From IMG/VR virus record IMGVR_UViG_3300047157_000186: a stretch of DNA of 64,000 nt; one strand, 5' to 3'. Source of the stretch: a virus. Its lineage: Duplodnaviria; Caudoviricetes. The notes below the pieces were generated by a model that saw only the letters and a list, made by a program, of their open reading frames with translations, had not been told where the DNA came from and made no database searches. Made by a program: the position numbers and the translations under genes. Shown one piece after another: positions 3,528 to 62,617 of the stretch (position 1 is the stretch's first letter; every line of letters starts with the position of its first letter).

Positions 3528-4226
3528 ATGAAACATATTAGAACATATGAAAGTTTTATTGGTGAAGGAAGATCTGCATATGACGGATTAGCTTCTAAAT
3601 TAACTAAAGCTATATTCAATAAATGGGTTAAATCATATAAAGGCGGGAACGCTACAATAAATTATGGAGACCAAATTGAAGAGAGAGGTTTAGAGTTTGA
3701 TATTGAAGCTACTATTGATATTGATAAAAAATATGAAGGATTTCAAGTATTAGATTCAACAGGTGCCGATGGCAGAGACGATGATGATCACGGTGACTTT
3801 CAAACACCTTATATTATTATAGACTTTGCTTTAAATCCTGAGTGGATTCCAGGAGAATGGTCAACAGTATATTTTCATTTAGCGGATGTTGTTCGCCATG
3901 AAATGGAACATATTACACAAGATGGGATTGACACTGGAAATTACAGAAACGGCAAACCTAATGAAGACGATAGTGAACTAAGAGCCTATATAAAAATGGG
4001 ACTTTTACCAAAATCTCAATATCTAATGTTACCTAAAGAGGTAGATGCTAATTTACAAGGATTAAGATATGAGGCTAAGAAGAGAAAAGAAAACATGAGT
4101 GATACTGTTCGTAGATATTTAGATACGCAACAGGAACAGGGTGTTATTAACGACGAAGAAAGAGAACAAGTATTAGATCTTTGGAGACGAAGAGCAGCAA
4201 AAATAGGAGGTATACCTAAATTTTAA
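3528..4226 (+). CDS. putative capsid-internal zincin metallopeptidase-like protein
   Basis: HExxH (RHEMEH) plus a downstream E (PKEVDA); N-terminus MKHIRTYESFIGE resembles a capsid-targeting leader. Confidence 0.6.
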   Translation: MKHIRTYESFIGEGRSAYDGLASKLTKAIFNKWVKSYKGGNATINYGDQIEERGLEFDIEATIDIDKKYEGFQVLDSTGADGRDDDDHGDFQTPYIIIDFALNPEWIPGEWSTVYFHLADVVRHEMEHITQDGIDTGNYRNGKPNEDDSELRAYIKMGLLPKSQYLMLPKEVDANLQGLRYEAKKRKENMSDTVRRYLDTQQEQGVINDEEREQVLDLWRRRAAKIGGIPKF

Positions 4227-4227
4227 T

Positions 4228-4683
4228 ATGAAATACATAAAACTATTCGAAGAGTTTACAGCAAACAAGGTATCTTGTGATAACTGTGGTTGGTCTTGGG
4301 AAATAGAAGACGGTGGACACGATGTGTTTATTTGTCATAAATGTAATCATGATAATACACCTATTTTAGGAGAACAATTTATCTTACAGGAATTAGAAGA
4401 TCAATTCAATATAGAATTAGATTTATATGATAACGGTAAATACTTACAACTTAGTAAAATAAAAATACAAAAAGAGGACCGAAATAAAGGAATCGGTTCT
4501 AAGGTTATGTCAAGAATTACTGACTATGCCGACACACAAAATTTAAAAATATATCTAACACCTTCTAAAGATTTTGGAGCAACTTCTATTTCTAGATTAA
4601 ATAAGTTTTATAAAAACTTTGATTTTGTCAAGAATACAGATAAAAGCCAAACTAAAGATACTATGGTTAGATTACCAAAATAA
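4228..4683 (+). CDS. zinc-ribbon plus GNAT acetyltransferase, putative capsid-internal protein
   Basis: CDNC..CHKC ribbon; acetyl-CoA motif RNKGIGSKVM and LNKFYKNFDF; N-terminus MKYIKLFEEF. Confidence 0.75.
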   Translation: MKYIKLFEEFTANKVSCDNCGWSWEIEDGGHDVFICHKCNHDNTPILGEQFILQELEDQFNIELDLYDNGKYLQLSKIKIQKEDRNKGIGSKVMSRITDYADTQNLKIYLTPSKDFGATSISRLNKFYKNFDFVKNTDKSQTKDTMVRLPK

Positions 4684-4693
4684 TAAAAACAAC

Positions 4694-7654
4694 ATGAGCA
4701 ATTTTAACGATTTCCTAGGAATGCAAGCCGCAAAACTAAACATGACAAGAGAAGAGTATACTGCATACTATTTGTCAGAAGCAAAACCTGGTCCAAAACC
4801 ATATCACAGAGGATTAGATGACGATGAGATTGAAGATAAAAAAGATCAGATAAAAAAACAATCAGACATGGATGACGATGATTCTAGTGCATATAAAGAA
4901 ATGCCAGGTGATAAAGAAGCTAGAGAAAAAGGTGAAGTTAAAACATCTAAGCATGTAAAGAAATATCATGAATTATATGGTGATAAAAAAGATGAGTCAG
5001 TGGATGAAGCAACATTCAGACCAAACTCAGGTACTATGAGTGGAGGTACATATACTTTAGATAATAGAAAATATAAATTAAAAAAAGATATTGAAGGTGT
5101 TCAAATTGGTAATTATACAAATATAGTGTTACCAAAGGGAACTATTATATACAACATTCCGGGCGGTGTGTTTGCAGATCACCCTTCATTAAAAAGATAC
5201 GAGAACGGAAACAACAAATATTTTAACAAACCAACATTTAAGGGAATTTCTATTATAAGAAAAGAGGAAACTATCTTTTCAATAGATAAAAATTCAAAGA
5301 TATTAGAATCAGTAGTTACTGAAGCTAAAGCATATAAGTTAAAAGCTTCTGAATTCGGTGGAGATACACACTCAGCACCGTACAACGTAAAGGGCGAACC
5401 TACATGGAGAGTTCATAGTACTTATGCTATTGATCAAGTATCTGGAGAAAATGATGCAAGTGAAAGAGACGTAGTTTTCTTTGAAGCAATGCCTATTAAT
5501 AATGACATATACATTAAGATTGGTGGAATCAATAACCTTAAAAGAACTAATGGTTCTACATACGGTAATAACTTTGGCACTACTATTGAAGAATGGAAAA
5601 AGGATCCAAAGAGAATTGCAAAAGAAGCTTCCGAGTTTCTTACTGATGCAACGCATCTTAAATGGATAAACAAAAAAGCAAGAAGTCAGGGTCAAACAAT
5701 TAAATGGGCTTTGAAGGACGATTACTCTAGTGTGATTGTAGATCTAGTTAATAAATCATTAGGTCTTACTGAATCTCAAGTTAATGAGTTTTATTTTGAG
5801 AAAGATGAAGAAGAAAGATTACAAAAATTTGTAGATCAACTTTCTTTTGGAGATGAACTAGAATACAGAGATGGTTTTTCTACAGGTCGTGGAAGCTTTC
5901 CAAATACAAGACAACTTAAAAATGAATTAGATTCTAATTTTCAATTATTACTAACTCAAAAATCAGGTAGAAATTGGGATCTTTATGTTGGTAGTGATGA
6001 TTTAGTTTTTCTTATACAGCCAGATTTAGGTGCAAAGAATTATATGCAAGTTTCAATAAGTAGTACTAAAGAACAATGGAACGATGAGTCTAGTGTTTTT
6101 GCTAGATCCAATGGATATTCAGTATATGAATCAGTAGTTAACGAAAGAGCTAAACACACATCAACTGATTTTTCTAAACCAGGTAATGATGGTGATATTT
6201 ACTTTTCAAAAAGAGAAGGTGATGCCGTCGGCGTTAGATTAGGAGATAAATTACAAATGATTTATGTTTTTCAAGAAGAACCTAAATTAGGAAGAATTCA
6301 AAAAACTGATAAACGTTGGGAAAACATGGGTCCAGCTTCTGAAGAACTTTTAATTGATTTAAGAGGTAGAGAAGAAGGTAAAATATTATTTGACTTTGTT
6401 TCAACTCTTGAAGAATCAGTAGTTAATGAAGAAAAGATTAAATATGCTAAAGGAAAAACATATCAATCTTCTGGTCATTGGACTGTACAAGTTGATAGTA
6501 ATTCAAGTATGTGTGATATTAGAGTAAATCATTCAGCTGGTTGGAGATTAGATCCACATGATGATAGAGAAGAAACTTGGGAATTATTAGATAATGGAAG
6601 ACAAAGAGCTACAATATATTTTAAATCTGGTAATATTGATAAGTTTGCTAAACAGATGTTTGATCTTAATGATAGAACAACTTGGGGTAATAAAACAAAA
6701 TTAACTGCTAAAGATTATGCAGATATTATTAGAGTTTGGATCGATATGAAAATGGCTAATGAAGGTAATTATAACTTAGAAGATATTTATGATTTAATAG
6801 CACATCACAGATTTGATAAAGATTATAAAAAACTTTCTTCTAAAGACAGAGAGTGGATAGAGAATGATGCTGAAGAAAGAGGATTCGTAGAATCTTTATC
6901 ACCCAGATTTTTTAATTCTTTATTAGTAAAGTTAAACGAAGATTTAATTACAGAAAGTAAAGTGCCTAATTTTAAATTCGGTATGAAAAAACAATATGAC
7001 GCTGATGATATTAATCAAATGTATGGTTTTTGGGGAACTCTAGATGTTCATATGGACACTTATGAAATTGAAGAAATATGGAACGATGTATGGGGAATAT
7101 TGACAAGGGGTTGGAAGTTCTCAGATGCTGGAGCGCTATATTATCTAAACGCAAAAGCTGGTAGATGGTTAGCAGATAAAGTATGGAACGATATTAATTC
7201 TCAGATTTCTCAACCAGATGCCATTGATATGATTTTATCTGATTATGCTAGACCATCTAAATGGAAGGCATGGTCAAAAGAATATAATACATTTGCTCAG
7301 GAAGAATTGGCAGAATGTGTTATTCTAGAAAAGGCTGAAGGCGATAGAGGTCCAATCAGTGATCCTAAAATTGAAAAAGCACTTAAGACAAAATCAGAAG
7401 AAACTGGTGTGCCAATTGGTATCATTAGAATTATTATGAGAAGAGGAATGGCAGCATGGAAAACTGGTCATAGACCTGGTGCAACTGAACAACAATGGGG
7501 ATATGCTCGAGTAAATGCATTTTTAACAAAAGGTAAAGGAACTTGGGGAGATGCTGATAAAGATGTCGCTAAAGAAGTTAGAGATGAAGGTCATGATGAC
7601 GGGTTAAAGGAACAGAATTACTTTGATCAATCACACAGAAAACAAAATATATAA
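4694..7654 (+). CDS. modular putative internal-head polyprotein with repeated ESVV(T/N)E-type linkers
   Basis: ATG 4694 is preferred over TTG 4619. Linkers at 4994, 5306, 5771, 6128 and 6413; C-terminal RGMAAWKTGHRPGATEQQWGYARVNAF (DUF5824-like, from recollection). Confidence 0.7.
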   Translation: MSNFNDFLGMQAAKLNMTREEYTAYYLSEAKPGPKPYHRGLDDDEIEDKKDQIKKQSDMDDDDSSAYKEMPGDKEAREKGEVKTSKHVKKYHELYGDKKDESVDEATFRPNSGTMSGGTYTLDNRKYKLKKDIEGVQIGNYTNIVLPKGTIIYNIPGGVFADHPSLKRYENGNNKYFNKPTFKGISIIRKEETIFSIDKNSKILESVVTEAKAYKLKASEFGGDTHSAPYNVKGEPTWRVHSTYAIDQVSGENDASERDVVFFEAMPINNDIYIKIGGINNLKRTNGSTYGNNFGTTIEEWKKDPKRIAKEASEFLTDATHLKWINKKARSQGQTIKWALKDDYSSVIVDLVNKSLGLTESQVNEFYFEKDEEERLQKFVDQLSFGDELEYRDGFSTGRGSFPNTRQLKNELDSNFQLLLTQKSGRNWDLYVGSDDLVFLIQPDLGAKNYMQVSISSTKEQWNDESSVFARSNGYSVYESVVNERAKHTSTDFSKPGNDGDIYFSKREGDAVGVRLGDKLQMIYVFQEEPKLGRIQKTDKRWENMGPASEELLIDLRGREEGKILFDFVSTLEESVVNEEKIKYAKGKTYQSSGHWTVQVDSNSSMCDIRVNHSAGWRLDPHDDREETWELLDNGRQRATIYFKSGNIDKFAKQMFDLNDRTTWGNKTKLTAKDYADIIRVWIDMKMANEGNYNLEDIYDLIAHHRFDKDYKKLSSKDREWIENDAEERGFVESLSPRFFNSLLVKLNEDLITESKVPNFKFGMKKQYDADDINQMYGFWGTLDVHMDTYEIEEIWNDVWGILTRGWKFSDAGALYYLNAKAGRWLADKVWNDINSQISQPDAIDMILSDYARPSKWKAWSKEYNTFAQEELAECVILEKAEGDRGPISDPKIEKALKTKSEETGVPIGIIRIIMRRGMAAWKTGHRPGATEQQWGYARVNAFLTKGKGTWGDADKDVAKEVRDEGHDDGLKEQNYFDQSHRKQNI
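4994..6430 (+). repeat. dispersed in-frame direct repeats encoding the ESVV(T/N)E linker, locus 1
   Basis: gaatcagtagttactgaagct 5306-5326, gaatcagtagttaacgaa 6128-6145, gaatcagtagttaatgaa 6413-6430; degenerate copies at 4994 and 5771. Confidence 0.85.
7646..7654 (+). promoter_or_regulatory. putative late promoter motif variant AATATATAA
   Basis: Followed by TACATG exactly as at 3516 and 53398; starts 12 nt before ATG 7658. Confidence 0.5.
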
Positions 7655-7657
7655 TAC

Positions 7658-8344
7658 ATGAAGTATATTAAATTGTTTTTAGAATCTGAAGTCAGAGATG
7701 ACGATACTTACAGCGATTATCCAGAAGCGGCAAAGAAAAATGCTCAAATGGCAATCGATTGGAAAGAAAAGTATGGTCGCGAAGAAGTGGACGCTGGAAC
7801 TGCAGTTGGTTGGGCAAGAGCACATCAATTAGCTAAAGGTGAAAACATATCTGGAGATACAGTAAAACGTATGGCTTCATTTAATAGACATAGAAAAAAT
7901 TCATCTATTAAACCTGAATTAAAAGAAACTCCATGGAAAGATAAAGGTTATGTTTCTTGGTTAATATGGGGTGGAGATGAAGGAGTTGATTGGGCAATGG
8001 AACTATCTAAAAAGATGAGTAAAGTTGAAGAAATGGTTAGTGTTTTATCTTTAGATCAATTTATTCTAGAGAAAAAGAAAAGTAAACCAAAAACAGATAA
8101 AGAAAAAATAAAAGATCTTTCTAAAAAACAAAAGAGTTTATCTAAGAAAAACAAAGATTTTATTGAGAAAATAAATAAGATGTCTAAAGATAAATCAAAA
8201 GAACCAGCTGATAAAATAGAAACGGCATTGTTAAAATCACAAATGCAACAAACTTCTGTTGATGGCATGAAAATAGCTGTTCAAAAAAACCAATTAGCTT
8301 TGAAAGCAAAGCTAAAGACGATTAAAAAAAGATCAAAGGCATAA
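7658..8344 (+). CDS. putative capsid-internal protein: conserved phage domain plus Lys-rich C-terminal module
   Basis: MKYIKLFLESE leader; GTAVGWARAHQLA..RMASF..RH..WLIWGG domain; internal SLDQFILE followed by a basic region. Confidence 0.65.
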   Translation: MKYIKLFLESEVRDDDTYSDYPEAAKKNAQMAIDWKEKYGREEVDAGTAVGWARAHQLAKGENISGDTVKRMASFNRHRKNSSIKPELKETPWKDKGYVSWLIWGGDEGVDWAMELSKKMSKVEEMVSVLSLDQFILEKKKSKPKTDKEKIKDLSKKQKSLSKKNKDFIEKINKMSKDKSKEPADKIETALLKSQMQQTSVDGMKIAVQKNQLALKAKLKTIKKRSKA

Positions 8345-8348
8345 TAAT

Positions 8349-8831
8349 ATGAAATATATTAAATTATTTGAATCATTTGTAAATGATAAAGAGATCAAGG
8401 ACTGGGAAAAAGATAACGGTAAACTACCGATTCCCAAGAAGATCATAGAGATATCTAAGGATATGGCAAAGGAAGGTTTTATTAGAAAAGATACTAAGGC
8501 GGTTCAAGCTAAATTATGGATTGGATTAGAAGGAATTTCATGGATAGAAATGAAGCAAAAGTTTGGAGATATAGTAGGTAAATTTTATGGTGGAGAATTC
8601 TATAATGCTATGACAAACCCTATGGCAGAAAAATCAGCCTATTATGCATATGAAGTTTCGAAGCATGTTAGTGATATGGTTGCTAATGAAGAATCAGTAG
8701 AACCTGCTTACTATCTAATGAAAAATTATTTTAATTCATTTGGATTAAATATTAACAGAAATAAACTTTTCGACAGAGCAGAAAGAGAACTAGATGCATG
8801 GATGAAAAACAACAAAATAGAAACGTTATAA
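8349..8831 (+). CDS. putative capsid-internal protein
   Basis: MKYIKLFESF leader, 160 aa. Confidence 0.6.
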   Translation: MKYIKLFESFVNDKEIKDWEKDNGKLPIPKKIIEISKDMAKEGFIRKDTKAVQAKLWIGLEGISWIEMKQKFGDIVGKFYGGEFYNAMTNPMAEKSAYYAYEVSKHVSDMVANEESVEPAYYLMKNYFNSFGLNINRNKLFDRAERELDAWMKNNKIETL

Positions 8832-8839: not shown

Positions 8840-8848
8840 GATATATAA
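8840..8848 (+). promoter_or_regulatory. putative late promoter motif GATATATAA
   Basis: Intergenic copy upstream of ATG 8868. Confidence 0.55.
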
Positions 8849-8867
8849 TAAAAATCAACAACACAAC

Positions 8868-9563
8868 ATGGACAAAAAAATATTATCATTCGAAGAGTAT
8901 GCTGCTAATAAAAATCTAGCAAATACTGACAAATTGGCTGAAGACGAAATCGAAATCAAAGTAGACGGAGAGTATGAAATCGAAGTAGAAAAAGAAGACG
9001 AAGACGAAAAAGAAGCGGAAACTGAAGAAACTGAAGAAAAAGTTGAAGAGGCTGAAGAGGTTGATGAAGATTTTGAAAAAAAATTCAATTCGGCAATGGA
9101 TTCTGTGGATGATGTTCGTACAGAAATTGAAATGACATTAGAAGACACACCTCAGTTAAAATCATTCTATACAGTAGATGCCCAATTAGATAAAGCACTA
9201 GGAAGTTATAGAAAAAAAATTAAGCGTATATTAAGTGCAGTTTCGGAATCAACTAATGAAGCAGAAGAAACTGAAGAGGTTGCAAAAGCGGTTTCAGAAA
9301 TGATGACAGAGGCATATGAATCTGCCGTCAAAGAAGCATGTGAATATGACAAAGATGACTATCCTGACCACACTGTAGAATCATACCTTAAAGAAAACGC
9401 AACATTAGCTGCAACATTAGTTGCTCAATCAGCAGAAGATGCGAACGCTGAGATACATGGAGAAGGACTTACTAAAGAAATGTACGAAGCATGTCTAAAC
9501 GGTATTAAAGAAGCTTATAATAAAAAGATTGATGAGCTTAAAGAAATGTACGAAGCAAAATAA
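8868..9563 (+). CDS. highly acidic putative prohead core/scaffold-like protein
   Basis: Very Glu-rich and helical; leader MDKKILSFEEY. Confidence 0.5.
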   Translation: MDKKILSFEEYAANKNLANTDKLAEDEIEIKVDGEYEIEVEKEDEDEKEAETEETEEKVEEAEEVDEDFEKKFNSAMDSVDDVRTEIEMTLEDTPQLKSFYTVDAQLDKALGSYRKKIKRILSAVSESTNEAEETEEVAKAVSEMMTEAYESAVKEACEYDKDDYPDHTVESYLKENATLAATLVAQSAEDANAEIHGEGLTKEMYEACLNGIKEAYNKKIDELKEMYEAK

Positions 9564-9608: not shown

Positions 9609-9610
9609 AC

Positions 9611-11867: not shown

Positions 11868-12788
11868 ATGAAAAAACTACTTGCAATTATCTCGTTAATT
11901 ATGTTATCATCATGCGGAGCCAGTTGGCAATTGTCTACGCTTAACCATGATCCAATATATGAAGACGAAAATTATATAGTGGTTTCAGATGATGTTAAGA
12001 TAGACACATTAAGTGAATTTCAGTTTAGAAATAAATTAAGAACAGATATAGGTTTTAGATTGGACTTTGCACGATATGCTTTGAGTCAACCGAGATCGTT
12101 TGATTGGAATAATAGATTACTAGGAAGGCGATATGATTCTAGATGGAATAACTATTATTGGAGTTGGAATAGAGATCAGATGTGGAATGATTGGGCTTGG
12201 GGTTATACAGGCTGGAATTCTTGGGGCTCTCCTCATAGATGGTCACCATTTGGATATGATAGATGGGGCTATGGAGTCTACTATGGTTGGAATAATCACG
12301 GTTGGGGATATAACAACTGGATGGGCAATGTTCATTATGGAAATGGTTACTATAATAACTGGGGCTGGAACAATGGGTTCTATAGTAGATATAGAGGTAC
12401 TAACGTGCCATACTATAGAAATAGATCAAATACGGTACGTGTTAATGGTCGAAGAGGTTCAATTAGTAATGAAGTAGTTAATAATAGAAGAGTTAGAACT
12501 AATACCAGAGTCAATACTAACACTAATACTAGGACTAATACAAAACCTAGAGTATATCTAAATCAAAACACACCAGTTAATAACAATACAAAACCTAGGG
12601 TTATTAGAGAGAAGCCGAGAGTACCAGTTATTAGAAACAATAATACAAGACCTAGGAATAATACAAGGCCAGTAATTAGAAACAATAACACAAGACCTAC
12701 ATATAACAATAACACAAGACCCACGAATAATTCTAGACCAACTACGACAACTAGAAAAAGTGGATCTAATACTAGAAGAGGTAACTAA
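11868..12788 (+). CDS. predicted lipoprotein with W/G/Y/N-rich and NNNTRP-repeat low-complexity regions
   Basis: Signal peptide II MKKLLAIISLIMLSS-C; aromatic/Gly/Asn-rich middle; basic repeat tail. Confidence 0.7.
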   Translation: MKKLLAIISLIMLSSCGASWQLSTLNHDPIYEDENYIVVSDDVKIDTLSEFQFRNKLRTDIGFRLDFARYALSQPRSFDWNNRLLGRRYDSRWNNYYWSWNRDQMWNDWAWGYTGWNSWGSPHRWSPFGYDRWGYGVYYGWNNHGWGYNNWMGNVHYGNGYYNNWGWNNGFYSRYRGTNVPYYRNRSNTVRVNGRRGSISNEVVNNRRVRTNTRVNTNTNTRTNTKPRVYLNQNTPVNNNTKPRVIREKPRVPVIRNNNTRPRNNTRPVIRNNNTRPTYNNNTRPTNNSRPTTTTRKSGSNTRRGN

Positions 12789-48564: not shown

Positions 48565-48573
48565 GATAAATAT
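48565..48573 (+). promoter_or_regulatory. putative late promoter motif GATAAATAT
   Basis: Intergenic copy upstream of ATG 48592. Confidence 0.45.
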
Positions 48574-48591
48574 AAAAACATAAATAATAAA

Positions 48592-49956: not shown

Positions 49957-50760
49957 ATGAGTATTATAAATAAAATTATTAGTAATAAGAACACCCTCAC
50001 TTTTGTGTTGGGTGCTCTTTTTGTTTTAATGTTTTTAAAACAATGTGACAGTATATCTTCTTTGAAACAAGACGTTAAATTAGCACAAGAAGATGCTGGT
50101 AGACAACTTAATAATTTTAAAGCGGCTCAAGATTCTGTTACTATATTAAGAAATGATAATGGTGATCAGCTTGCTCAGATTAGATCTTATGAATTTGATT
50201 TATCAAATATGGAATCTAGCCAAACTAAGTTGACTAAAAAATATAAGAAAGTGCTAGCACTTAATGATGACTTAAAAGAAGTTAACTCATTAATTTCGGC
50301 TAACCTAGAAATTACAGATAGTTTAGATGTAACTACTACAACTGAGACCATTGACACAACAACTACTAAAGTTACGTTTGCATCATCAGAAGATTTTGGT
50401 AATGGTAACTCTAGAAAACTAACAGGGTTTTCTACCTTTAAATATGAATTTGAAAAATTTAAAGTATTGGAAACTAAGTTTGAATTGACACAAACTTTAA
50501 GTTTAATGGCTGCAATTGAGAACGTAAATGGAGCCGATAGATTAAAGTTATCGACAAGCTATCCTGGATTAGAGATTAAAGATATTGAAAATATAAACTT
50601 AGTTAATAGCAGATTAAATAGAAAAGACCAAAAGAAATCTAGATGGCTAGTTGGTTTTGGTGTTGGATATGGAATTAATTTAAACAATAACCAAGTGATT
50701 AGTACTGGACCATCTATTGGTGTAGGACTTTATTGGTCACCTAAATTTTTACAATTTTAA
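49957..50760 (+). CDS. membrane-anchored coiled-coil protein with C-terminal amphipathic beta-hairpin (spanin candidate)
   Basis: N-terminal TM, coiled coil, end RWLVGFGVGYG..GPSIGVGLYWSPKFLQF. Confidence 0.55.
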   Translation: MSIINKIISNKNTLTFVLGALFVLMFLKQCDSISSLKQDVKLAQEDAGRQLNNFKAAQDSVTILRNDNGDQLAQIRSYEFDLSNMESSQTKLTKKYKKVLALNDDLKEVNSLISANLEITDSLDVTTTTETIDTTTTKVTFASSEDFGNGNSRKLTGFSTFKYEFEKFKVLETKFELTQTLSLMAAIENVNGADRLKLSTSYPGLEIKDIENINLVNSRLNRKDQKKSRWLVGFGVGYGINLNNNQVISTGPSIGVGLYWSPKFLQF

Positions 50761-53397: not shown

Positions 53398-53406
53398 GAT
53401 ATATAA
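53398..53406 (+). promoter_or_regulatory. putative late promoter motif GATATATAA
   Basis: The G lies 12 nt before ATG 53410. Confidence 0.6.
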
Positions 53407-53409
53407 TAC

Positions 53410-53778
53410 ATGAAAACATTTAATACATATTTAATTGAAAACGCTGTTAACGAACAGGATTTGGAACTTATTAATGAAGGTCTTCAAGAAACTTGGACTC
53501 CGGAGTTAGAAGAGAAAATAGATGCAGCATTAGAATCTTTTGCTTCAGAATATCAAAATGAAGATGGTTCTTATGATATTGAGAGACTTAATGAAGAGAT
53601 GACTAATGAAGGTTTCTTTGGATCAATTATTGGTGGACTTACCGGTTTTGCTTTAGGGAAATCTATTGGTAAAATGCTAGCAAAAGTTCTTGGTATTCAA
53701 AAAGGTGTGTTTTACGATTTATTAACTTCTAGACTTGTAGGTGCCGCATTAGGTGCAGCTCTAGGTAAAAAACTGTAA
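53410..53778 (+). CDS. putative capsid-internal protein with glycine-zipper C-terminus
   Basis: MKTFNTYLIE leader; acidic propeptide with VNE/INE/LNE/TNE sites; GSIIGGLTGFALGKSIG..GAALGAALG. Confidence 0.6.
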   Translation: MKTFNTYLIENAVNEQDLELINEGLQETWTPELEEKIDAALESFASEYQNEDGSYDIERLNEEMTNEGFFGSIIGGLTGFALGKSIGKMLAKVLGIQKGVFYDLLTSRLVGAALGAALGKKL

Positions 53779-54835: not shown

Positions 54836-55758
54836 ATGAGTGATTCATTTGACATTTTTAACTTGGGCGTGGAAGACGTAGAAACGCACCAAGTGAAAGC
54901 AAGTAGTTCTACTAACGAAGATCTACAAACCAACAGCAGACGATGGTAAAGACGGAACTTACAAAGCATTAATACGTTTTGTGCCAAATCCAGAAAACCC
55001 TCGTAATTCCCTAATCCAAAAATATGTACACTGGTTAACAAACTCTAGTGGCGATGGTAAATTAGTTGATTCTCCAGCAACAATCGGAGAAAAATGCCCT
55101 ATCGCAGATGTATTCTGGAAGTTGCGTAAATCAGATTCAGCTGTAGATAGAAAATCTTCAGATAAACTAAAAAGACGCCAACAGTACTATTCTTTAGTAA
55201 AGATCGTAAAAGATCCACAAAATCCAGAACTAGAAGGTACTTACAAAGTATTTAAATTTGGATATAAAATTAAAGAAAAGATAGACGCAGAATTAAAACC
55301 AAACTTTGGTGAGCCAACACAAGTATTCGACCTATTCGAAGGTAAGAACTTTGAGTTAGTTATCACTAGACAAGGTGAATATAATAACTACGATAATCTA
55401 AATTTTCTTCTAGTAAGTCAGCTATTATTATGGGCGATGCTCCAGCAGAAAGTAGTAAAGAAACTATGACTACTATCAAAGAAGAGTTAGAAGCAGCTCC
55501 TTCATTAAAAGGATATGATTATCAAAGCATGGGACGAAGATACAAGATCATTTGTAAATGATGTATTAAGAATGTATCTTAATCCGGGTGATTCTATTGC
55601 ATCGAGTGACATCAAGTGCTCCAAAGGCAGCAACTAAAACTGCAACAGCAGTAAAAGAAAAACCAGCGGCAGCACCAGTGACTTCAACGTCGGAATCAAC
55701 TTCAAGTGTATCAACAGATGATGATCTAGATTCTTTCTTGAATGACCTCGACATCTAA
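54836..55758 (+). CDS. T4 gp32-like single-stranded DNA-binding protein with about 4 apparent single-base indels
   Basis: IYKPTADDGKDGTYKALIRFVP, CPI, YKVFKFGYKIKEKI, FDLFEGKNF and acidic tail DDDLDSFLNDLDI are recovered by shifting frame near 54918, 55396, 55526 and 55605. Confidence 0.8.
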
Positions 55759-56824
55759 TAACAATATAGAACTTACTGAAGAGCTTAAAGGATAAAATAA
55801 GATATGCACTTAACAAGTAGTATCTCAAATACATTCTACTCCTAATAAGAAGCTACTAAAGGACATGCATGGGCGAATAACCTGTGCATGTCCTTATTGT
55901 GGTGATTCTCACTGAAGACGATACCAAGAAAAGAGGTAATATATTTTGGGATACACTACAGTATCATTGTTATAATTGTAGTTATCATACTAATCTATAT
56001 TCTTTTTTAAAAGATCATGATGTTAAGATGCCTAACATCTAATGACTCTTTTATGGTTATCGACTATATCAAACAAAATAAAATACAGGTAAACCCAGAG
56101 TCTGTATTGAAACACCAGGCGCTAGAAAAGATACATAATCTAGCAATTGATGTTGAAGAATTCAAGAAACATTTTAAAGCTAAAGTAATAGAACCAGGTG
56201 ATTGGATTTGGTTTCAATTAAAGATAGGTTATTACATAAAAAATCTGAAGAATTTCTATATTCAGATAAAGAGTTTCGTTTTGGATTCTTAAATATAGTA
56301 CAGATGGTAAAATTATAGGTGCACAACCAGTAGAATGAAAGGGTATGGGACAGAGATATTTAACTTATGATTTGCCAAAATTATATGAAGAAATGGGTAA
56401 GCCATTAGAAATGAGCAATGAGGAACTAAACACACTTGCAAAGATATCAACACTTTTTGGAATTATGCAATTAAATTTCCAAAGACCAGTAACAATGTTC
56501 GAAGGTCCTTTAGATGCTAAAGTTTATGCATAACTCGTTGGCCTTAGCAACTGCAGGTAGATCAACTGATGAATTTGATGAGATACCAACTGTAGGTATA
56601 TGTTTGATAATGACGCAACGGGTAAAAAGAAAATGGCAGAAAAGTTAAAGAAAGGCAGACCCGTTTTTATGTGGTCTAAATTTCTTAGCGAAAATAAACT
56701 AGATACATATAATATTAAGGATCTAAATGATTTAATATTGAAGTGTTTTGAGCTTAAAATCGATGCTCACAAAAAGATCGATAATTATTTCACTTCTAAT
56801 CAATTAGATTTATGGTATGTATAG
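55742..56824 (+). CDS. T4 gp61-like DNA primase with many apparent single-base indels
   Basis: Zn finger CPYCGDS..KKRGN..YHCYNC; TOPRIM FEGPLDAK, MFDND and KDLND spread over several frames. Confidence 0.78.
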
Positions 56825-57033
56825 AAACGATTAACAACATGGTTGAGGATAACTTTGATGAGTTCCAAAAAGACAGTGATAGATTTAAGGGTATGAAACT
56901 TTTGATAGATTTCAAGCCATTAGATCTTAGCGTCAATTCTCCAGAAATGGAAATGCCAAAACCTAAATTTAAGAAGAGGCAAATAACATCAAAATTTATT
57001 AAACCAAATCCTAACAAGAAATCATTATTTTAA
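56812..57033 (+). CDS. hypothetical protein
   Basis: 73-aa ORF between primase and the uvsY-like gene; lies in the noisy region. Confidence 0.5.
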   Translation: MVCIETINNMVEDNFDEFQKDSDRFKGMKLLIDFKPLDLSVNSPEMEMPKPKFKKRQITSKFIKPNPNKKSLF

Positions 57034-57034
57034 T

Positions 57035-57457
57035 ATGACTAAAGAAAACATACTAGCATTAGACGGAAAAGTTAAGTAGACAAAGAACTGAGTGGACAAA
57101 CAATATAAAAAAGTTGGCACAGAGTTTGAGAAACTTAAATTTAATGGAAGAAACAATTGCTGAAGTTTTATCTTCGCGTCAATCTCTAGTAGAACAAATG
57201 CATATTTAAATATGAAAGTAAAAGAACAAAAAGCAAAAGTAGCTATTAGATATAGAGAAGCCTATATTAGATACTATGAATATGATTATAAACTCGGTGA
57301 AAAACAAAAAGAAAGATTTATAGAGACAGACTTAGCAGACGAAAACATGATATTGTCTCATCTAGAAAATCAAGTTGAGTTTTTTAAAGATTCGGTAAAA
57401 ACCCTAGATAATATGGGATTTGCCATTCGTAATAGACTAGCATTAAAAGATCTATAA
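57035..57457 (+). CDS. uvsY: UvsY-like recombination mediator with about 2 apparent indels
   Basis: Helical protein ending VKTLDNMGFAIRNRL, directly upstream of uvsW; N-terminal half (MTKENILALDGK..) is in other frames. Confidence 0.6.
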
Positions 57458-57482
57458 CGAAAAATAAAAATGCTCTAACAAT

Positions 57483-58991
57483 GTGGAGCTTAGTTTAACT
57501 GAAAATAAACAGTTGCTACGTATTGATGAAGCAACTGAATTAGAACTGGAACAACTCAATATTTCTTTAAATAGAAGAATTGATTCATGGCGATTTAATC
57601 CTTTGGTTAAAAAGGGTTTATGGGATGGATATGTTTCATATATAAAAGATGATAAATGGATTCCTTCAGGATTATGGAGAGAAGTCATGCAGATATGTAA
57701 AGAATATAAATTTGAGTTTAAACTCAATGGTATTACTGACATGTTTGATACCAATATTAATCAAGAAAAATTTACAAAATGGGCTTTAGACTTTTTCGAA
57801 AAGTCAGAGATAACTCCAAGAGATTATCAAATAGAGGCAGCATTTAATATACTAAAATTTAGAAGATGCTTAAGTGAGCTTGCAACTTCTGCGGGTAAAA
57901 CACTGATATCATTCTTAACAGTATCATATTTACTAGAACAACAAAAAGCAAAAAAGATTTTATTTATTGTACCCAATGTATCATTAGTTGTACAAGCGAG
58001 TGAAGATTTTCTAGACTATAATTATAGAAATGCAATAGATATTAAGGTACAGCAAATATACAGTGGTCAAAAATTAAGGCCAGGTAGGAATGTTATTATT
58101 GGAACATATCAATCACTTGTTAAAAAAGATAAAGCATATTTTGCAGAATTTGATGCAGTAATTGTTGATGAAACACACAAAGCAAAATCAGCCTCTATTA
58201 AAACTATTTTACAAAAGTGTATTAATGCAGATTATAAATATGGTTTATCTGGAACTATTCCAAAAGAAGGCACATTAGATAGATTAACACTAATGGCATA
58301 TACTGGTCCATTAATTACAGAAATAAGTGCACATTATTTACAAAACGAAGGGCATATAGCAGGTTGTAAAGTAAAGGTAATTAAAATGGACTATGCACCT
58401 CAATCTACAAAAGACGCATTTAGAGAAATGTCCCAGAATAGATATGAAAGTAAAGACGTTTTTAAATTTGAGCAAAACTATGTGATCAATTCACCTGGAA
58501 GACTTAATTTTATAACAAGTATTATCTCCAGGGTTAAGGGTAATAGTTTAGTTCTTTTTCATAGAATTGAACATGGTAAAAAAATATATGAAAAACTCAG
58601 ACAAGAGAGTGATAAATCTGTTTATTATGTTGATGGTGGAATTGATAAAGATATTAGGGAAGAACACAAAAAGAAAATGGAAGCTGGAAACCAAGTCGTC
58701 ATTGTCGCTTCATATGGTACATTCTCAACTGGTATATCCATCAAGAAAATCCACAACATATTCTTCACAGAATCATTTAAATCGGAAGTAATTATTAGAC
58801 AATCTATCGGTAGAGGTTTAAGGCAACATAGCTCTAAAGACTCGGTCAATATTATAGATTTTGTAGATGATTTAAGTTCTCCTGATTGGGACAACTATCT
58901 AATAAGACACTCCAAAGAAAGACAAAGGATCTACAAGGAACAGAAGTTTAAGTATGATATAAAAAATGTAGATTTTGAAGGAGATATATAA
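57483..58991 (+). CDS. uvsW: UvsW-like DNA helicase
   Basis: PRDYQ, LATSAGKTLI, IVPNVSLV, VDETH, GLSGT, STGISIK and QSIGRGLR motifs. Confidence 0.92.
   Translation: MELSLTENKQLLRIDEATELELEQLNISLNRRIDSWRFNPLVKKGLWDGYVSYIKDDKWIPSGLWREVMQICKEYKFEFKLNGITDMFDTNINQEKFTKWALDFFEKSEITPRDYQIEAAFNILKFRRCLSELATSAGKTLISFLTVSYLLEQQKAKKILFIVPNVSLVVQASEDFLDYNYRNAIDIKVQQIYSGQKLRPGRNVIIGTYQSLVKKDKAYFAEFDAVIVDETHKAKSASIKTILQKCINADYKYGLSGTIPKEGTLDRLTLMAYTGPLITEISAHYLQNEGHIAGCKVKVIKMDYAPQSTKDAFREMSQNRYESKDVFKFEQNYVINSPGRLNFITSIISRVKGNSLVLFHRIEHGKKIYEKLRQESDKSVYYVDGGIDKDIREEHKKKMEAGNQVVIVASYGTFSTGISIKKIHNIFFTESFKSEVIIRQSIGRGLRQHSSKDSVNIIDFVDDLSSPDWDNYLIRHSKERQRIYKEQKFKYDIKNVDFEGDI
58983..58991 (+). promoter_or_regulatory. 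putative late promoter motif GATATATAA
   Basis: Overlaps the uvsW stop; upstream of ATG 59025. Confidence 0.55.
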
Positions 58992-59024
58992 TAAAATAAT
59001 AACATACAAAAAAATAACAACACT

Positions 59025-61322
59025 ATGTATAAATTAAAATCTTTTGATCAGTTTTCTACTGAATCACAAATCAATAGATCTAGACAAGTAGAAGAAGAAA
59101 ACTCTACTAAAAGAAGTACTGAAGCAGAAACATATAAAAATTTACTTGGTGAATTTAAAGTTACTTCTATCAAAGAATTAACTGAAGAGCAAAGAATCGA
59201 ATTTTTTACTAAGTTAAGAGGCGCTGAGATTAACGAAGCAACTGTTTTAATTGAAGAAGGAACTAGAGGACAAATTGGTAAAATCGATAAAAAAGGAAAT
59301 ATCACTTCTGTATATATGCATTATGATTCATATCCTGAAAACATATTACCTATTATAACTTCAACTTTTAAAGATGGTAAAAATGTAGATTTTATTCTTA
59401 AGAATGGAGACAGTTCGGGTTTAGATAAAGATGTTAAGAAGATTAATTTCTACGGGAACTTTACAGCGTCTAAGGGTAAAATTGCTAATATATCTAAATA
59501 TCTAAGGGATGTTGCTGATGGCGGCGGCGCTGAATTCGTATACTTATGGGATGAAGCCAACAAAGAATGGTTAATGGCAGACATTTACGGTAAAGGATAT
59601 GATGATGTTTACCCAGCGTTTGAATCTTTAACTACTTCAGTAAATGAAGCTATTTCAGTTCAATATAAAAGAGACGCAAAAAAAGTTTTAACAGTTTATA
59701 AAAATTTATTTACTAAGAAACTAACAGATTTTGGTGCAATGGACAAAGTAGGTACATTAGGTTGTATTAAGTATCTTTTTGAAGAAGCGATGACAGATGC
59801 TAATTTCCACAGAGAGAAAGTTATATCTAAGAATATTAAAGGTAGAATAGGTTCATTTGAATTAAAAGTAGCAGGTTTAGGTAATCACTTTTTAACAATA
59901 GGTGCTACTACTACAAAAAGAATTTTAGATAAACATTATAGTGACCTTGCAAATGCAGCTGGTTGGTCAGGAATCGGAATTGTTGAAGGTACTGCTCTTT
60001 ATTTAGAGAGTATTAAAGAAGAAGCTTCAGGTCAAGCTTTATTAAATGCGTTTAACATGTTTGAGTCATTTGCGTATGACGAAGGAGATGCTATCAATGA
60101 GAAATCATATGATAAAAAGTCTTTAATGAAAGCTATGAAAGCAGATGATGGCATGATTCAATTAGGAAATGGACAAGAGTATGTTATTTATGCATATGGT
60201 AATGGCAACGATAACAATGATGATATGTGGGGAGATAAAACAATCTTTGGATTAGATCAAGACGGAGAAGAACATGAGATTAAATATTCTGACATTGTAA
60301 GTTATAATGAAGCTACTGTAGTAATGGATGCAATGGATCCTAAATCAAAGATACTTAAAAAACTTTTAAAGAAACATAACGTTAAAATGAAAGTTTTAGA
60401 TCCTAGTGGACCAAGTGGTTGGCCAGAGGTTGAAATGACAGGTTCAAGAGAAGATCTGCAAGCAGTTTTAGCATCTGAAGATGGTTGGGACGACGCTGGT
60501 CTAGAAGAATATATTGAAGAATCAGTAGTTACTGAATCACACCCAAAATGTTCAAATAAAAAAGGACATGCATACAAAGAAATTGACAAAGACGGAACTG
60601 TAGAATGTGAATATTGTGGTTTAAGAAATTCATTAAGCGAATCAGGGGTTACTGAAGCTAAATTTGTTAAAGAGTTTGACGAGGCTGTTTTAAAAGCAAC
60701 TACACAAGAAGAGGTTCTTGAAATTTATCCAAACGCAGAATTCTTTATTGGCAAATCAGATCATTTCTTTGGAGAGTTTGATGAAAATTTATTCTTTAAA
60801 GCATATTATACCAAAGGACAAAAAGAATTTGAAATCAAGTCAATTTATTCTGAAAAAAACAGTAACTATGTTCACTTATATAATGAATCAGTAGTTACTG
60901 AAGCTAAAGGCTTTAAAAACACAACAGATTTCGAAAAATTCTTAATAGAAATTGATGGAATGGGAGAAGCTCAAATTAAAAAGATAATGGGTAAAGATTA
61001 TATCGATACTCCTGGTTATTATCAAGATGAAAAAGATGATTATGATGATGTGGAAGATTTTATGAGATCTAATATGGGCACTTCAGAATTTGAAAAACTT
61101 GAATCATGGTGGGAAAGCAACGTTGCAGAATCAGTAGTTACTGAAGCTGAAGTTAATTCAGATGAAGAATTTGAAGAATATGCGGTAACTGTTTTACAAA
61201 AAGCATTTGGAGAAGATTTTGACGAAGCTAAATCTAAAAAAGTTATAGACGGTATTTTATCTAAAGCAGATGGAGATTATGGTACTGCAGTTGGTATGCT
61301 AACTAGCTCGTTAGGACAATAA
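59025..61322 (+). CDS. second modular putative internal-head polyprotein with ESVVTE linkers
   Basis: Leader MYKLKSFDQFSTE; linkers at 60519, 60639, 60885 and 61128; modules include a VYMHYDSYP domain and a C/H zinc finger. Confidence 0.7.
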   Translation: MYKLKSFDQFSTESQINRSRQVEEENSTKRSTEAETYKNLLGEFKVTSIKELTEEQRIEFFTKLRGAEINEATVLIEEGTRGQIGKIDKKGNITSVYMHYDSYPENILPIITSTFKDGKNVDFILKNGDSSGLDKDVKKINFYGNFTASKGKIANISKYLRDVADGGGAEFVYLWDEANKEWLMADIYGKGYDDVYPAFESLTTSVNEAISVQYKRDAKKVLTVYKNLFTKKLTDFGAMDKVGTLGCIKYLFEEAMTDANFHREKVISKNIKGRIGSFELKVAGLGNHFLTIGATTTKRILDKHYSDLANAAGWSGIGIVEGTALYLESIKEEASGQALLNAFNMFESFAYDEGDAINEKSYDKKSLMKAMKADDGMIQLGNGQEYVIYAYGNGNDNNDDMWGDKTIFGLDQDGEEHEIKYSDIVSYNEATVVMDAMDPKSKILKKLLKKHNVKMKVLDPSGPSGWPEVEMTGSREDLQAVLASEDGWDDAGLEEYIEESVVTESHPKCSNKKGHAYKEIDKDGTVECEYCGLRNSLSESGVTEAKFVKEFDEAVLKATTQEEVLEIYPNAEFFIGKSDHFFGEFDENLFFKAYYTKGQKEFEIKSIYSEKNSNYVHLYNESVVTEAKGFKNTTDFEKFLIEIDGMGEAQIKKIMGKDYIDTPGYYQDEKDDYDDVEDFMRSNMGTSEFEKLESWWESNVAESVVTEAEVNSDEEFEEYAVTVLQKAFGEDFDEAKSKKVIDGILSKADGDYGTAVGMLTSSLGQ
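60519..61148 (+). repeat. dispersed in-frame direct repeats encoding the ESVVTE(A) linker, locus 2
   Basis: gaatcagtagttactgaa at 60519; gaatcaggggttactgaagct at 60639; gaatcagtagttactgaagct at 60885 and 61128 (identical to 5306). Confidence 0.9.
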
Positions 61323-61330
61323 TAAAATAA

Positions 61331-61339
61331 GATAAATAC
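61331..61339 (+). promoter_or_regulatory. putative late promoter motif GATAAATAC
   Basis: The G lies 12 nt before ATG 61343. Confidence 0.55.
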
Positions 61340-61342
61340 CTT

Positions 61343-62617
61343 ATGAAGATCTTTACTAATTTCAATGAATTTATAACTGAGAGTGTACGTACTAGTACAA
61401 CTGAGTCCCTTATTTTAGAAGGTGGAGCAGCGGGCCATATGTCACATCCATTTGATGAAAAAGATTTAACATTCGGTGACTTTAAAAAAATTGTTGAAGC
61501 TGGTCTTCAAGGAGAATTAAACTTTGAAGAGGTTGCAACAGAAAAAACAGACGGCCAAAATTTATTTGCCACCGTAAGAAACGGAGTTACTCTATTTTCT
61601 AGAAATAAAGGCCAATTAATTAGCCCAGTCGATTTAGCCGGTATTATAAAAATGTTTGAACAGCATGAAGTTCCCTTAGTAAGAGAAACATACGTGTTTG
61701 CTGCTAAAGACCTAAATGAAGCTCTTCCAAAGATGAAGGATCAGTCTATATTTAATGAAGGTAAGAACTTTATTAATATGGAATTAATTTACTCTAAGAA
61801 TCCTAATGTTATTTATTATGAAAGAGATGTTTTACAATTCCATGATATTAAGGAAACTGATGGAAATGGAAATATTATTGGAGAGCAAAAAATAGCAGGA
61901 GAGCTGGTTTCCGCATTAAAAGAAGTTGATGCTGATGTTCAAAAAACATTTACAATAATTCCCCCTCAAATATTAAAATTAGGAAAAGATATTGATTTCG
62001 AAAAAAATCAATCTAAATTCATCAAAAAGATTGAAGCACTAAGAGATCGTTATGGTTTATTAGATACTGATTCAGTTTCAAGATATCACGAAATGTGGTG
62101 GAGAGAAACTATAGATAGAAACTTTCCAGATACAGAACAAGATTATAAAGAAGGTTTATTATTAAGATGGGCTTATGGTGATAAGAAGACTTTAAACATG
62201 AGATCTTTAGACAAATCGTTAGGTAAAGATAAAGCATCTCTTATTAAGAAATTTGACAAAGAAGATGTTAAAAAGAAATATAAAGAAAACATTAGACCGT
62301 TTGAAGATTTATTCTTAGAACTAGGATCTATAATTCTTAAAAATGCTTCTAATTTTGTAGCAGCAAATCCAGACAAGGAAATGCAAAGATTACATAATCA
62401 AATAAGAACAGAAGCTGAAGCTATTAAAAAAACCGGAGGTGAAGCTCAAATTGCAAGAGTAGAAGCTGAACTTGCCAGATTAGATAGAATTGGAGGAATA
62501 GAATCTATTATACCAACTGAAGGAATAGTTTTTGTGTACAAAGGAAAAACAATGAAATTAACAGGTACGTTTGCAGCCATTAATCAATTAATGGGTATCA
62601 TAAAATACGGAAGATAA
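61343..62617 (+). CDS. ligase-fold (covalent nucleotidyltransferase) protein with capsid-targeting-like leader (DUF6267-like, from recollection)
   Basis: Motif I EKTDGQN, III NMELIY, IIIa LQFHD, IV EGIVF, V MKL; leader MKIFTNFNEFITE..SLILE. Confidence 0.65.
   Translation: MKIFTNFNEFITESVRTSTTESLILEGGAAGHMSHPFDEKDLTFGDFKKIVEAGLQGELNFEEVATEKTDGQNLFATVRNGVTLFSRNKGQLISPVDLAGIIKMFEQHEVPLVRETYVFAAKDLNEALPKMKDQSIFNEGKNFINMELIYSKNPNVIYYERDVLQFHDIKETDGNGNIIGEQKIAGELVSALKEVDADVQKTFTIIPPQILKLGKDIDFEKNQSKFIKKIEALRDRYGLLDTDSVSRYHEMWWRETIDRNFPDTEQDYKEGLLLRWAYGDKKTLNMRSLDKSLGKDKASLIKKFDKEDVKKKYKENIRPFEDLFLELGSIILKNASNFVAANPDKEMQRLHNQIRTEAEAIKKTGGEAQIARVEAELARLDRIGGIESIIPTEGIVFVYKGKTMKLTGTFAAINQLMGIIKYGR

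Follow-up and report, generated by a model that had tools for sequence, protein, structure and literature searches.

A leader resembling the T4 capsid targeting sequence on unrelated, putative capsid-cargo proteins of an uncultured marine jumbo phage

The window, i.e. the whole stretch of 64,000 nt analysed here (32% G+C, with 59 proteins counted in the motif test), derives from an uncultured marine jumbo phage related to T4, presumably one that infects a marine bacterium of low G+C. An earlier note had singled out nine genes for an N-terminus similar to the capsid targeting sequence (CTS) of T4, and all nine open reading frames were found, with their N-termini, where it had placed them (Table 1). 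Both gene clusters it described (3.5-9.6 kb, 59-64 kb) were confirmed, and the one at 59-64 kb extends to ~67.5 kb in a matching contig, whose 59025 and 61343 proteins are exactly those of the window over the residues printed.

Table 1. Positions of the leader genes and related features in the window; in the text genes are named by their first nucleotide.
Feature	Position	Strand	Description
ATATATAATA late-promoter-like motif	3517..3526	+	1 nt upstream of the gene 3528 start codon
Leader gene 1	3528..4226	+	232 aa; leader MKHIRTYESFIGE at 3528-3566, strict motif
Leader gene 2	4228..4683	+	151 aa; leader MKYIKLFEEFTAN at 4228-4266, Asn replaces Glu
Multidomain protein	4694..7654	+	986 aa; N-terminal module 4694-4780; DUF5824 C-terminal
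Leader gene 4	7658..8344	+	228 aa, basic, pI ~9.7; variant leader MKYIKLFLESE at 7658-7690
Leader gene 5	8349..8831	+	160 aa; leader MKYIKLFESFVND at 8349-8387, Asp replaces Glu
Leader gene 6	8868..9563	+	231 aa, very acidic, pI ~4.2; leader MDKKILSFEEYAAN at 8868-8909
Leader gene 7	53410..53778	+	122 aa, acidic; leader MKTFNTYLIE at 53410-53439, strict motif
Leader gene 8	59025..61322	+	765 aa; leader MYKLKSFDQFSTE at 59025-59063, strict motif
Leader gene 9	61343..62617	+	424 aa; leader MKIFTNFNEFITE at 61343-61381, strict motif
Internal leader-like segment	63769..63834	+	VLNFKSYLLNQ...SPVLE inside the 62617 ORF, directly before a cytidylyl/NMNAT-like domain
Other ATATATAATA copies before leader genes	7647-7656, 8841-8850, 53399-53408, 58984-58993		

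In the first cluster, the body of the 3528 protein contains an invariant HEMEH (HExxH) motif, and M1, F10 and E13 are invariant across its 14 orthologues (alignment A2). Its structure model is of fair quality (pLDDT 77), with values below 50 for the first 14 residues, which precede the folded body; nothing was found for this protein in Pfam or PHROGs, and neither a convincing Foldseek or VIA-align match nor a clear PDB match was obtained. The 4228 protein, which matches phrog_10691 (3925 positions), has a Cys4 zinc-ribbon-like segment and a weak GNAT-like region (GNAT families, all under the Pfam cut-offs). The 7658 protein matches phrog_2859, and its orthologues begin with either the canonical MKYIKLFEDFVNE or MKYIKIFEDFIKE, while an 8349 orthologue carries the leader MKYIKLFERFITD. 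Gene 8868, with no Glu at the cutting position, always closes its cluster and is followed by a dCMP deaminase gene.

The claim that all nine genes share a CTS-like N-terminus holds for eight of them. The N-terminus of the 4694 protein (MSNFNDFL...) was rejected as a leader, being a separate 29-residue module (NF..MTREEY..YYLSE) that ends in YTAYYLSE and that, in another lineage (loci L006-L025, L056 and L058), also heads the ligase-like enzyme, before an internal leader. The domains of this protein are shuffled or fused in G002, a 212-kb contig of a syntenic relative, where a 1330-aa ORF joins domains that the window has as separate tagged genes, with leader-like remnants at the junctions.

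As for the remaining genes, the leader of 53410 has ten residues, the T4 length, and its family comprises 32 unique orthologues with 15 different leaders; the 59025 family comprises 42 unique relatives with 22. Sequence and structure model suggest that the body of the 61343 protein is a ligase-type nucleotidyltransferase, probably an RNA ligase: the EKTDGQN segment (motif I, KxDG) is invariant, as is E13, and F10 is nearly so (alignment A1). The protein had no Pfam, PHROG or PDB sequence match, and the matches to the ligase fold are weak (5cot_A, Z 6.2, 111 residues aligned; Rnl1 at the top of the Foldseek list, E 0.2). Relatives are encoded in 230 IMG/VR stretches, the leader varies in sequence while keeping its pattern in 80 loci, and in the 462-kb phage LR756500.1 a homologue of 33% identity begins with MKFLKSYEEFLNE. 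The leader-like segment inside the 62617 ORF is a possible tenth tagged or cut site.

The leader has 10-13 residues, with the consensus M-K-[HKY]-[IVL]-K-[LT]-F-E-[QED]-F-[ILV]-[NT]-E, and in the structure models a short helix spans residues 7-15 of the 61343 protein and residues 7-11 of the 3528 protein; a linker of low confidence leads from it to the folded body. A motif for the leader, as the earlier note had proposed, was defined strictly as [FY]xx[FY][ILVMFTASC]xE with its start among the first 9 residues. In the window it is found in four of the 59 proteins, within their first 13 residues (YESFIGE in 3528, FNTYLIE in 53410, FDQFSTE in 59025 and FNEFITE in 61343), against 0.16 expected from the internal rate (Poisson P=2.6e-5); G002, which stood in for a genome-wide scan, has eight such matches against 0.72 expected. 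In three further genes the leader is the same except that Glu is replaced, by N in 4228, by D in 8349 and by N in 8868; their orthologues hold N, D, S or K at this position, those of 4228 retaining N or D. The simpler pattern [FY]xx[FY] was tried and dropped as too weak, its N-terminal excess being only ~2-fold (12 seen, ~5.8 expected). After [FY]xx[FY]hx, E comes next in 164 of the 279 unique N-terminal occurrences (59%), as against 118 of 1412 internal ones (8%), and the signal resides in the full motif, Glu included. The baseplate, tail-fibre, helicase and deaminase genes are all without a strict match.

Beyond the close relatives, a DNA pattern for the 13-residue leader gave 20 matches in LR756500.1, with none for the reversed control, and none in T4 or in Tenacibaculum phage PTm1, the nearest cultured relative examined. 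The whole PTm1 genome has no leader enrichment (9 loose matches, 5.1 expected), and therefore its biology is not transferable to this clade; PTm1 was for this reason rejected as a proxy for the virion proteome. It does have a protease-scaffold fusion.

The CTS of T4 is the N-terminal tag of IPI, IPII and IPIII (Mullaney and Black 1996, via PMC9026906, PMC3012670), a propeptide of 10-19 residues with aromatic residues at positions 4 and 7, a hydrophobic residue at 8 and Glu at 10; mutagenesis of the IPIII CTS assigned residues 4 and 7 to targeting and 8 and 10 to processing, and Asp at position 10 blocks cutting and leaves targeting intact (PMC9026906). In the T4 record the leaders read MKTYQEFIAE (IPII, IPIII), MKTFKEFTST... 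(IPI) and MKTFKEFIKE (a 54-aa ORF), and the motif also covers the site at which gp23 is cleaved, FGSFLTE|A. The proposed likeness to the T4 internal proteins thus extends to the functionally mapped positions: aromatics three apart are followed by hydrophobic-x-Glu (YQEFIAE in T4, FEQFINE here). All four mapped residues occur in 3528, 53410, 59025 and 61343; 4228, 8349 and 8868 keep the targeting half only, 7658 has a variant and 4694 does not fit. Natural variants without Glu exist in T4 as well, since IPI lacks Glu at position 10 and is cut downstream. The leader differs from the T4 CTS in its usual length of 13 residues, with three extra after MK, although ten-residue forms exist (53410, and MKKFEEFIGE in G002), and in that it can be internal, behind a second module. 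Judged by title and abstract, none of the 21 papers that contain the phrase "capsid targeting sequence" concerned marine or uncultured jumbo phages, and PMC13326640 was discarded as a lead, having the phrase in its reference list only.

As in T4, the tag sits on otherwise unrelated proteins. The bodies behind the leaders of the window have no pairwise BLASTP similarity at E<=0.01, in agreement with the note's view of the downstream domains, and in relatives the leader precedes 43 BLAST-unrelated body families (sampled loci), far more than in T4, including ATP-grasp, GNAT-like and Acb1/2H-like proteins. Unlike the small basic proteins of T4, the tagged set includes large enzymes and the 765-aa protein. 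Most of these families lie in hypervariable clusters, e.g. between the gene-3528 orthologue and the dCMP deaminase gene, where 16 relatives have 3-8 leader genes of changing content, and which resemble in this respect the hypervariable internal-protein loci of T-even phages (PMC3012670). At the conserved F, E and K positions codons are chosen as in the genome as a whole (180 different leader DNAs), which shows that selection acts on the leader peptide.

The sequence ATATATAATA occurs in nine exact copies in the window (eight on the + strand), against 1.55 expected; it lies upstream of five of the nine flagged genes, mostly ahead of the first gene in a leader cluster, and in G002 it also lies upstream of capsid and tail-fibre genes. 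Some leader genes in relatives follow another upstream motif, TATATTAGTA, so the timing of those genes is uncertain.

No head or protease genes lie within the 64-kb window, and the link to head assembly therefore comes from relatives. Relatives with conserved synteny, whose 61343 proteins are 79-91% identical to that of the window, encode Portal_T4, Peptidase_S77 (gp21-type) and Gp23, as well as a gp55-like late sigma factor, the DNA end protector gp2 and the clamp loader gp44; homologues of gp20, gp21, gp23 and gp55 are a T4-like property of the lineage. In a 38-kb contig of a 91%-identical relative, the leader-tagged ligase-like gene and the T4-type head module occur together, and the gp21-type protease and scaffold were found in this contig and in G002, G003 and G005. 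The protease is fused to a scaffold-like tail in which the motif is repeated in tandem: each of the 36 unique protease-scaffold ORFs has 3-5 strict copies at residues ~265-365 (e.g. YVEYLKE, YAEYIAE), where the internal rate predicts ~0.2 per protein. A small ORF between portal and protease, the position held in T4 by the prohead core proteins gp67 and gp68, begins with MKIIKTFEDFISE and in G002 has an acidic tail, as does gp67, and the ORF after the capsid gene begins with MKLKSKLKLYEEFVNE. Homology to gp67, gp68 or Alt was not detected at the sequence level, and in the T4 record gp67 and gp68 have N-termini without the aromatic pattern. YLDFVYE (residue 120), the sole strict match in the G002 capsid protein, was rejected as a gp23-type cleavage site, since its BLASTP counterpart lies in the mature part of T4 gp23. 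A complex prediction that paired the scaffold repeats (residues 240-375 of A3) with residues 1-40 of the 3528 protein (A2) scored 0.00, which speaks neither for nor against binding.

We infer core binding, cutting, packaging and injection of the tagged proteins by analogy with T4. The leader would be an N-terminal helix of 10-13 residues, whose two aromatics (T4 positions 4 and 7) may dock the protein on the scaffolding core during prohead assembly, and whose hydrophobic-x-Glu end (T4 positions 8 and 10) may be where a prohead protease of the gp21 type cleaves the tag off; the mature protein would stay inside the head alongside the DNA, ready to be delivered into the next host. Genes 3528, 53410, 59025 and 61343 probably encode canonical cargo with the Glu. 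The 7658 protein, with a variant leader ending in Glu, is probably cargo too, and its cutting place is uncertain, whereas 4228, 8349 and 8868 probably encode cargo that would either be kept uncut, like the T4 Asp-10 mutant, or be cut further downstream, like T4 IPI. The figure of nine cargo genes is an upper estimate of what the motif supports, because the Glu of the canonical site is present in only four of the nine and one has a different module; in relatives, the predicted cargo set is larger than nine.

The motif, the head module of relatives, the spread over families and the codon use make the reading of these proteins as capsid cargo well supported by comparison, and we consider it likely that the leader of the flagged genes is the local version of the T4 CTS and that the tagged proteins travel in the capsid. 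Counting against this is that an RNA-ligase-like enzyme is no classical virion protein. The leader could instead be a shared docking or processing helix with a role outside the capsid, either in timed cytoplasmic proteolysis or activation or in binding another phage or host machine, the scaffold repeats then reflecting a helical habit of sequence. Several tagged proteins do resemble cytoplasmic enzymes (the ligase-type protein here and the ATP-grasp, GNAT-like and Acb1/2H-like proteins of relatives), and the upstream motif of some tagged genes looks non-late. We hold such a role to be unlikely, as gp21 processing in T4 takes place within prohead assembly, the motif agrees with the mapped CTS positions, and it recurs on the protein in the gp67/68 position and three to five times in the protease-scaffold ORF. 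T4 moreover offers a precedent for an enzyme in the head in Alt, an ADP-ribosyltransferase that is packaged and trimmed at both ends by the prohead protease gp21 (PMC9026906).

A boundary at the DNA level, serving the recombinational swapping of accessory gene cassettes and leaving the peptide as a by-product, would account for 5' ends that stay alike where cluster content differs among close relatives, and for the remnants at the junctions of the 1330-aa fusion in G002. It is nevertheless quite improbable: synonymous codons at the conserved positions vary as elsewhere in the genome, Glu is specifically selected, the leader is kept on a single-copy enzyme even where body identity falls to 33%, and the motif is also present inside scaffold proteins. 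Least probable by far is chance or translational bias, by which initiation-favouring AT-rich codons in a genome of 32% G+C would enrich N-termini in K, I, F, Y, N and E. The modest excess of [FY]xx[FY] alone and the many unrelated genes that begin with MK are what such a bias would give, but it is already contradicted by the counts, with the full motif 25-fold (window) and 11-fold (G002) above expectation, the reversed DNA pattern unmatched in LR756500.1, and no enrichment in the equally AT-rich PTm1.

A broader version of the capsid-cargo reading, which we regard as tentative and on balance doubtful, is that the tag makes capsid cargo predictable from sequence across dozens of unrelated families (RNA-ligase-like, ATP-grasp, GNAT-like, Acb1/2H-like, HExxH and mosaic proteins), in an abundant clade of marine T4-related jumbo phages and at least one 462-kb huge phage, with docking onto CTS-like heptads of the scaffold tail (Y-x-E-Y-[LI]-A-E), tag and scaffold pairing like with like. 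Such pairing, if true, would provide a physical mechanism for CTS recognition, which to our knowledge has not been worked out in T4 either.

In the jumbo phages SPN3US and phiKZ, a protease of the gp21 family reportedly trims many head-internal proteins at motifs of the A/S/G-x-E type, and many proteins are said to be packed with the DNA. We know of no short common N-terminal address tag described for these phages, and the head genes of the present phage are, in comparison, much closer to T4. The polyvalent proteins of phages and conjugative elements, as reported by Iyer et al. 2017, are large mosaics built from domains of the counter-defence type that probably accompany the DNA. The 4694 protein (986 aa) and the G002 fusion of 1330 aa look similar, and the match of gene 4228 to phrog_10691 fits this likeness, whereas most domains here are split into small genes, each with its own leader; neither MuF nor another hallmark polyvalent domain was detected.

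Since the leader matches the T4 head-loading signal at the key positions, the phage probably packs tagged enzymes with its DNA, and perhaps injects them along with it. That diverse internal proteins share a conserved CTS is already known from T-even phages, and the present case therefore extends established biology and adds no new principle. If the tag works as in T4, the head contents of an uncultured, evidently common marine jumbo phage can be read from its genome. Packaged proteins of this kind face the defences of the host before any other phage product, and a tagged set that includes enzymes, and not small inhibitors only, would broaden the view of what phages bring into the cell in finished form. 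In metagenomes, the 13-residue tag could also be used to search for packaged proteins, and in engineering it could provide a handle for packaging.

The resemblance of nine window genes, named here by their start coordinates, to the N-terminal capsid targeting sequence (CTS) of T4 internal proteins, proposed in the earlier note, is real for eight of them and strict for four; the exception is 4694, whose N-terminus is a different 29-residue module (NF...MTREEY...YYLSE). All nine N-terminal sequences were confirmed exactly as given. A strict motif that sums up the resemblance, [FY]xx[FY][ILVMFTASC]xE starting within the first nine residues, is carried by four window proteins (3528, 53410, 59025 and 61343), where the internal rate predicts 0.16 (P=2.6e-5). 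In G002, a 212-kb IMG/VR contig with an estimated completeness of 76% and synteny to the entire window, it occurs at eight N-termini, where 0.72 are expected. The leaders of 4228, 8349 and 8868 are the same except for N or D replacing the Glu, and that of 7658 is a variant whose canonical form is present in its orthologues. As the earlier note also stated, the nine bodies are unrelated (no mutual similarity by BLASTP). No baseplate, fibre or replication protein within the window starts with the strict motif. In the structure models the leader is a short helix, and the linker behind it has low confidence.

In the T4 record, IPIII and IPII start with MKTYQEFIAE, IPI with MKTFKEFTST...ITE and a 54-aa ORF with MKTFKEFIKE; the same seven-residue pattern is common to these leaders and to the gp23 maturation site, FGSFLTE|A. 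Packaging of IPIII needs no more than its first ten residues, residues 4 and 7 of the CTS mainly governing targeting and residues 8 and 10 processing, and Asp at position 10 blocks cutting while targeting is kept (PMC9026906). The positions mapped in T4 are exactly those conserved in the present leaders. Given the Asp-10 result and IPI, the natural reading, by analogy, of the N/D variants (4228, 8349 and 8868) is that they would be targeted and would either escape cutting there or be cut further downstream, like IPI.

Among 61343 orthologues (80 loci), about 27 different leaders were observed, all fitting M-K-x-h-x-x-[FY]-x-x-F-h-x-E; the Glu never varies, and the linker behind them differs in length and sequence. 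The fetched loci together contain 180 different leader DNAs, in which the codons used for the conserved F, E and K residues follow the genome-wide choice (F as TTT, 78% in leaders vs 77% genome-wide; E as GAA, 79% vs 82%), and the residue after [FY]xx[FY]hx is Glu in 59% of N-terminal cases vs 8% of internal occurrences. Since codon choice is that of the genome and Glu is in excess at N-termini, selection acts on the leader peptide, and on the Glu in particular.

The leader is also modular. In loci fetched around two window genes, the strict motif heads 223 unique proteins belonging to 43 families with unrelated bodies, and three to eight tagged genes, differing in content between relatives, lie between the 3528 orthologue and the dCMP deaminase gene. 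The second window cluster runs past the window end, with three more tagged genes at window-equivalent 66.1–67.5 kb, as read from a contig that encodes 59025 and 61343 proteins identical to those of the window over the residues compared. A DNA pattern for the 13-residue leader was found at 20 gene starts in the uncultured phage LR756500.1 (reversed control, 0), where the homologue of the 61343 protein (33% identical) starts with MKFLKSYEEFLNE, and at none in T4, whose tag is shorter, or in PTm1, which has the protease-scaffold fusion but no enrichment of the leader. The 4694-type module, about 30 residues long (NF.DF....A....MTREEY.A.Y[LM]SE), is found at the N-terminus of two unrelated proteins, namely the 986-aa mosaic 4694 and the ligase-like enzyme of another lineage, in which it precedes an internal CTS-like segment (KVLSFDEYIVE).

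One 1330-aa ORF of G002 fuses the domains of 4228, 7658 and 8349 with parts of 4694, in a different order, and its junctions hold leader-like remnants (MKYVKPLNEAE) and repeated ESVVTE/ESVVNE sites. We regard it as the outcome of fusion or fission of genes in a hyperplastic locus; alternatively, the head protease may cut it as a polyprotein.

PHROG and Pfam scans, by which window gene content was assigned, found no head gene in the window. In G002, Portal_T4, a Peptidase_S77 domain opening an 820-aa ORF and the Gp23 capsid protein follow the T4 gene order, and relatives further have genes for a gp55-like late sigma factor, a gp2-like DNA end protector and a gp44 clamp loader. Each of the 36 unique protease ORFs fetched has three to five strict motif copies behind the protease domain, at about residues 265–365 (e.g. 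YVGYIAE, FANYLAE, YVEYLKE, YAEYIAE), with looser ones between (e.g. QYSEHVAE), then an extended acidic region and a C-terminal domain that is conserved, a layout that looks scaffold-like. A small ORF between portal and protease, the place of T4 gp67/gp68, starts with MKIIKTFEDFISE, and the ORF 3' of the capsid gene starts with MKLKSKLKLYEEFVNE in several relatives; with the protease-ORF repeats, both tie the motif to head assembly. A single 38-kb contig of a relative (61343 homologue 91% identical) unites the head module with five tagged genes, among them the ligase-like one. The sole strict hit in the G002 capsid protein was rejected as a cleavage site, since its counterpart in T4 gp23 lies within the mature part. 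In every relative inspected, a TnsA-like endonuclease ORF (E 4e-18) separates the gp55-like gene from the gp2-like one, and in some relatives the gp55-like ORF is called shorter (93–94 aa vs about 126 aa).

From weak but recurrent RNA ligase fold matches, 61343, in which EKTDGQN is invariant, is a putative ligase-type nucleotidyltransferase. The next ORF, 62617, has a C-terminal cytidylyl/NMNAT-like domain with an internal leader-like segment just ahead of it, and in Microcystis phage Mel-JY01 cytidylyltransferase-like and ligase-like parts form one annotated fusion protein. The 3528 protein has an invariant HEMEH motif and received no assignment in fold searches; 4228 has a Cys4 segment and a weak GNAT-like region. 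Tagged proteins of relatives include ATP-grasp enzymes, GNAT-like proteins and an Acb1/2H-phosphoesterase-like protein, with nearly all of the underlying hits under Pfam cut-offs.

Nine copies of ATATATAATA (eight on the + strand) are present in the window vs 1.55 expected, located upstream of 3528, 7658, 8868, 53410, 59025, two fibre genes and one small ORF, and in G002 upstream of capsid and tail-fibre genes. It resembles the T4 late promoter, TATAAATA, and a late-promoter-like role would fit the gp55-like sigma factor of relatives. Where it abuts the ATG, a promoter with T4-like spacing would give leaderless mRNAs that begin at the start codon or within it; failing that, the motif would serve some other purpose at these sites. 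A second motif, TATATTAGTA, likewise abuts start codons in relatives, and G002 upstream regions are enriched in TTTGTGGTATATTAGTA, like an extended -10 promoter, which may represent an early or middle class and a clue to the host sigma factor.

Location of features in the window, in G002 and in loci fetched from relatives (L numbers)
Feature	Location	Remarks
1330-aa ORF	G002 56207-60199 (L086/L087)	counterpart of window 4228-8831, four separate genes
Second N-terminal module	window 4694-4780; L006-L025, L056, L058 (e.g. L012:9887-9985)	
ATATATAATA ending one base before ATG (…TAATAC-ATG)	window 3517-3530, 7647-7660, 53399-53412	three genes
TnsA-like endonuclease ORF	L146:2862-3335, L158:2873-3346, G002 144004-144477	PF08722
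Internal leader-like segment LNFKSYLLN...SPVLE	window 63769-63834	directly ahead of nucleotidyltransferase domain of 62617 ORF
dCMP deaminase and two helicases	window	PHROG/Pfam
RuvC-like resolvase	window	PHROG/Pfam
Baseplate and tail-fibre block	window ~15-53 kb	gp5-, gp6-, gp25-like wedge/hub proteins; 2691-aa fibre-like ORF

The window has about 32% G+C, and its called genes are all encoded on the + strand. The closest deposited phages are distant (<=38% identity), namely LR756500.1 (462 kb), the Tenacibaculum phages PTm1 and PTm5, the Sphingomonas phage PAU and the Lak phages; relatives of the 61343 protein are encoded on 230 IMG/VR stretches. At window 54981-57033 a gene looks broken by frameshifts, stops or insertion: the short ORFs 56017, 56345 and 56600 match consecutive stretches of a single 359-aa protein in G002, and ORF 54981 matches part of another. 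Window 48000-50000 (G+C 0.40 vs about 0.31 in the surroundings) may be a swapped receptor-binding tip beside the fibre genes; the G002 match of its 454-aa ORF (48592-49956) is confined to the first 75 residues. A 306-aa ORF with a lipoprotein-type signal (MKKLLAIISLIMLSSC; 11868-12788) has no homologue in G002, and a similar ORF occupies the same position in other relatives.

No description of such a leader in marine or uncultured jumbo phages was found in the searchable literature. T-even internal proteins are a highly diverse, defence-countering set with the CTS as the only shared feature (PMC3012670). We consider capsid targeting the best explanation of the present leader, and a reasonably probable one, because it matches the mapped T4 signal position by position, syntenic relatives have T4-type head machinery, the motif is present in scaffold- and core-position proteins, and its spread is modular, with selection at the peptide level. 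We infer that the tagged proteins would be cut, packaged and injected.
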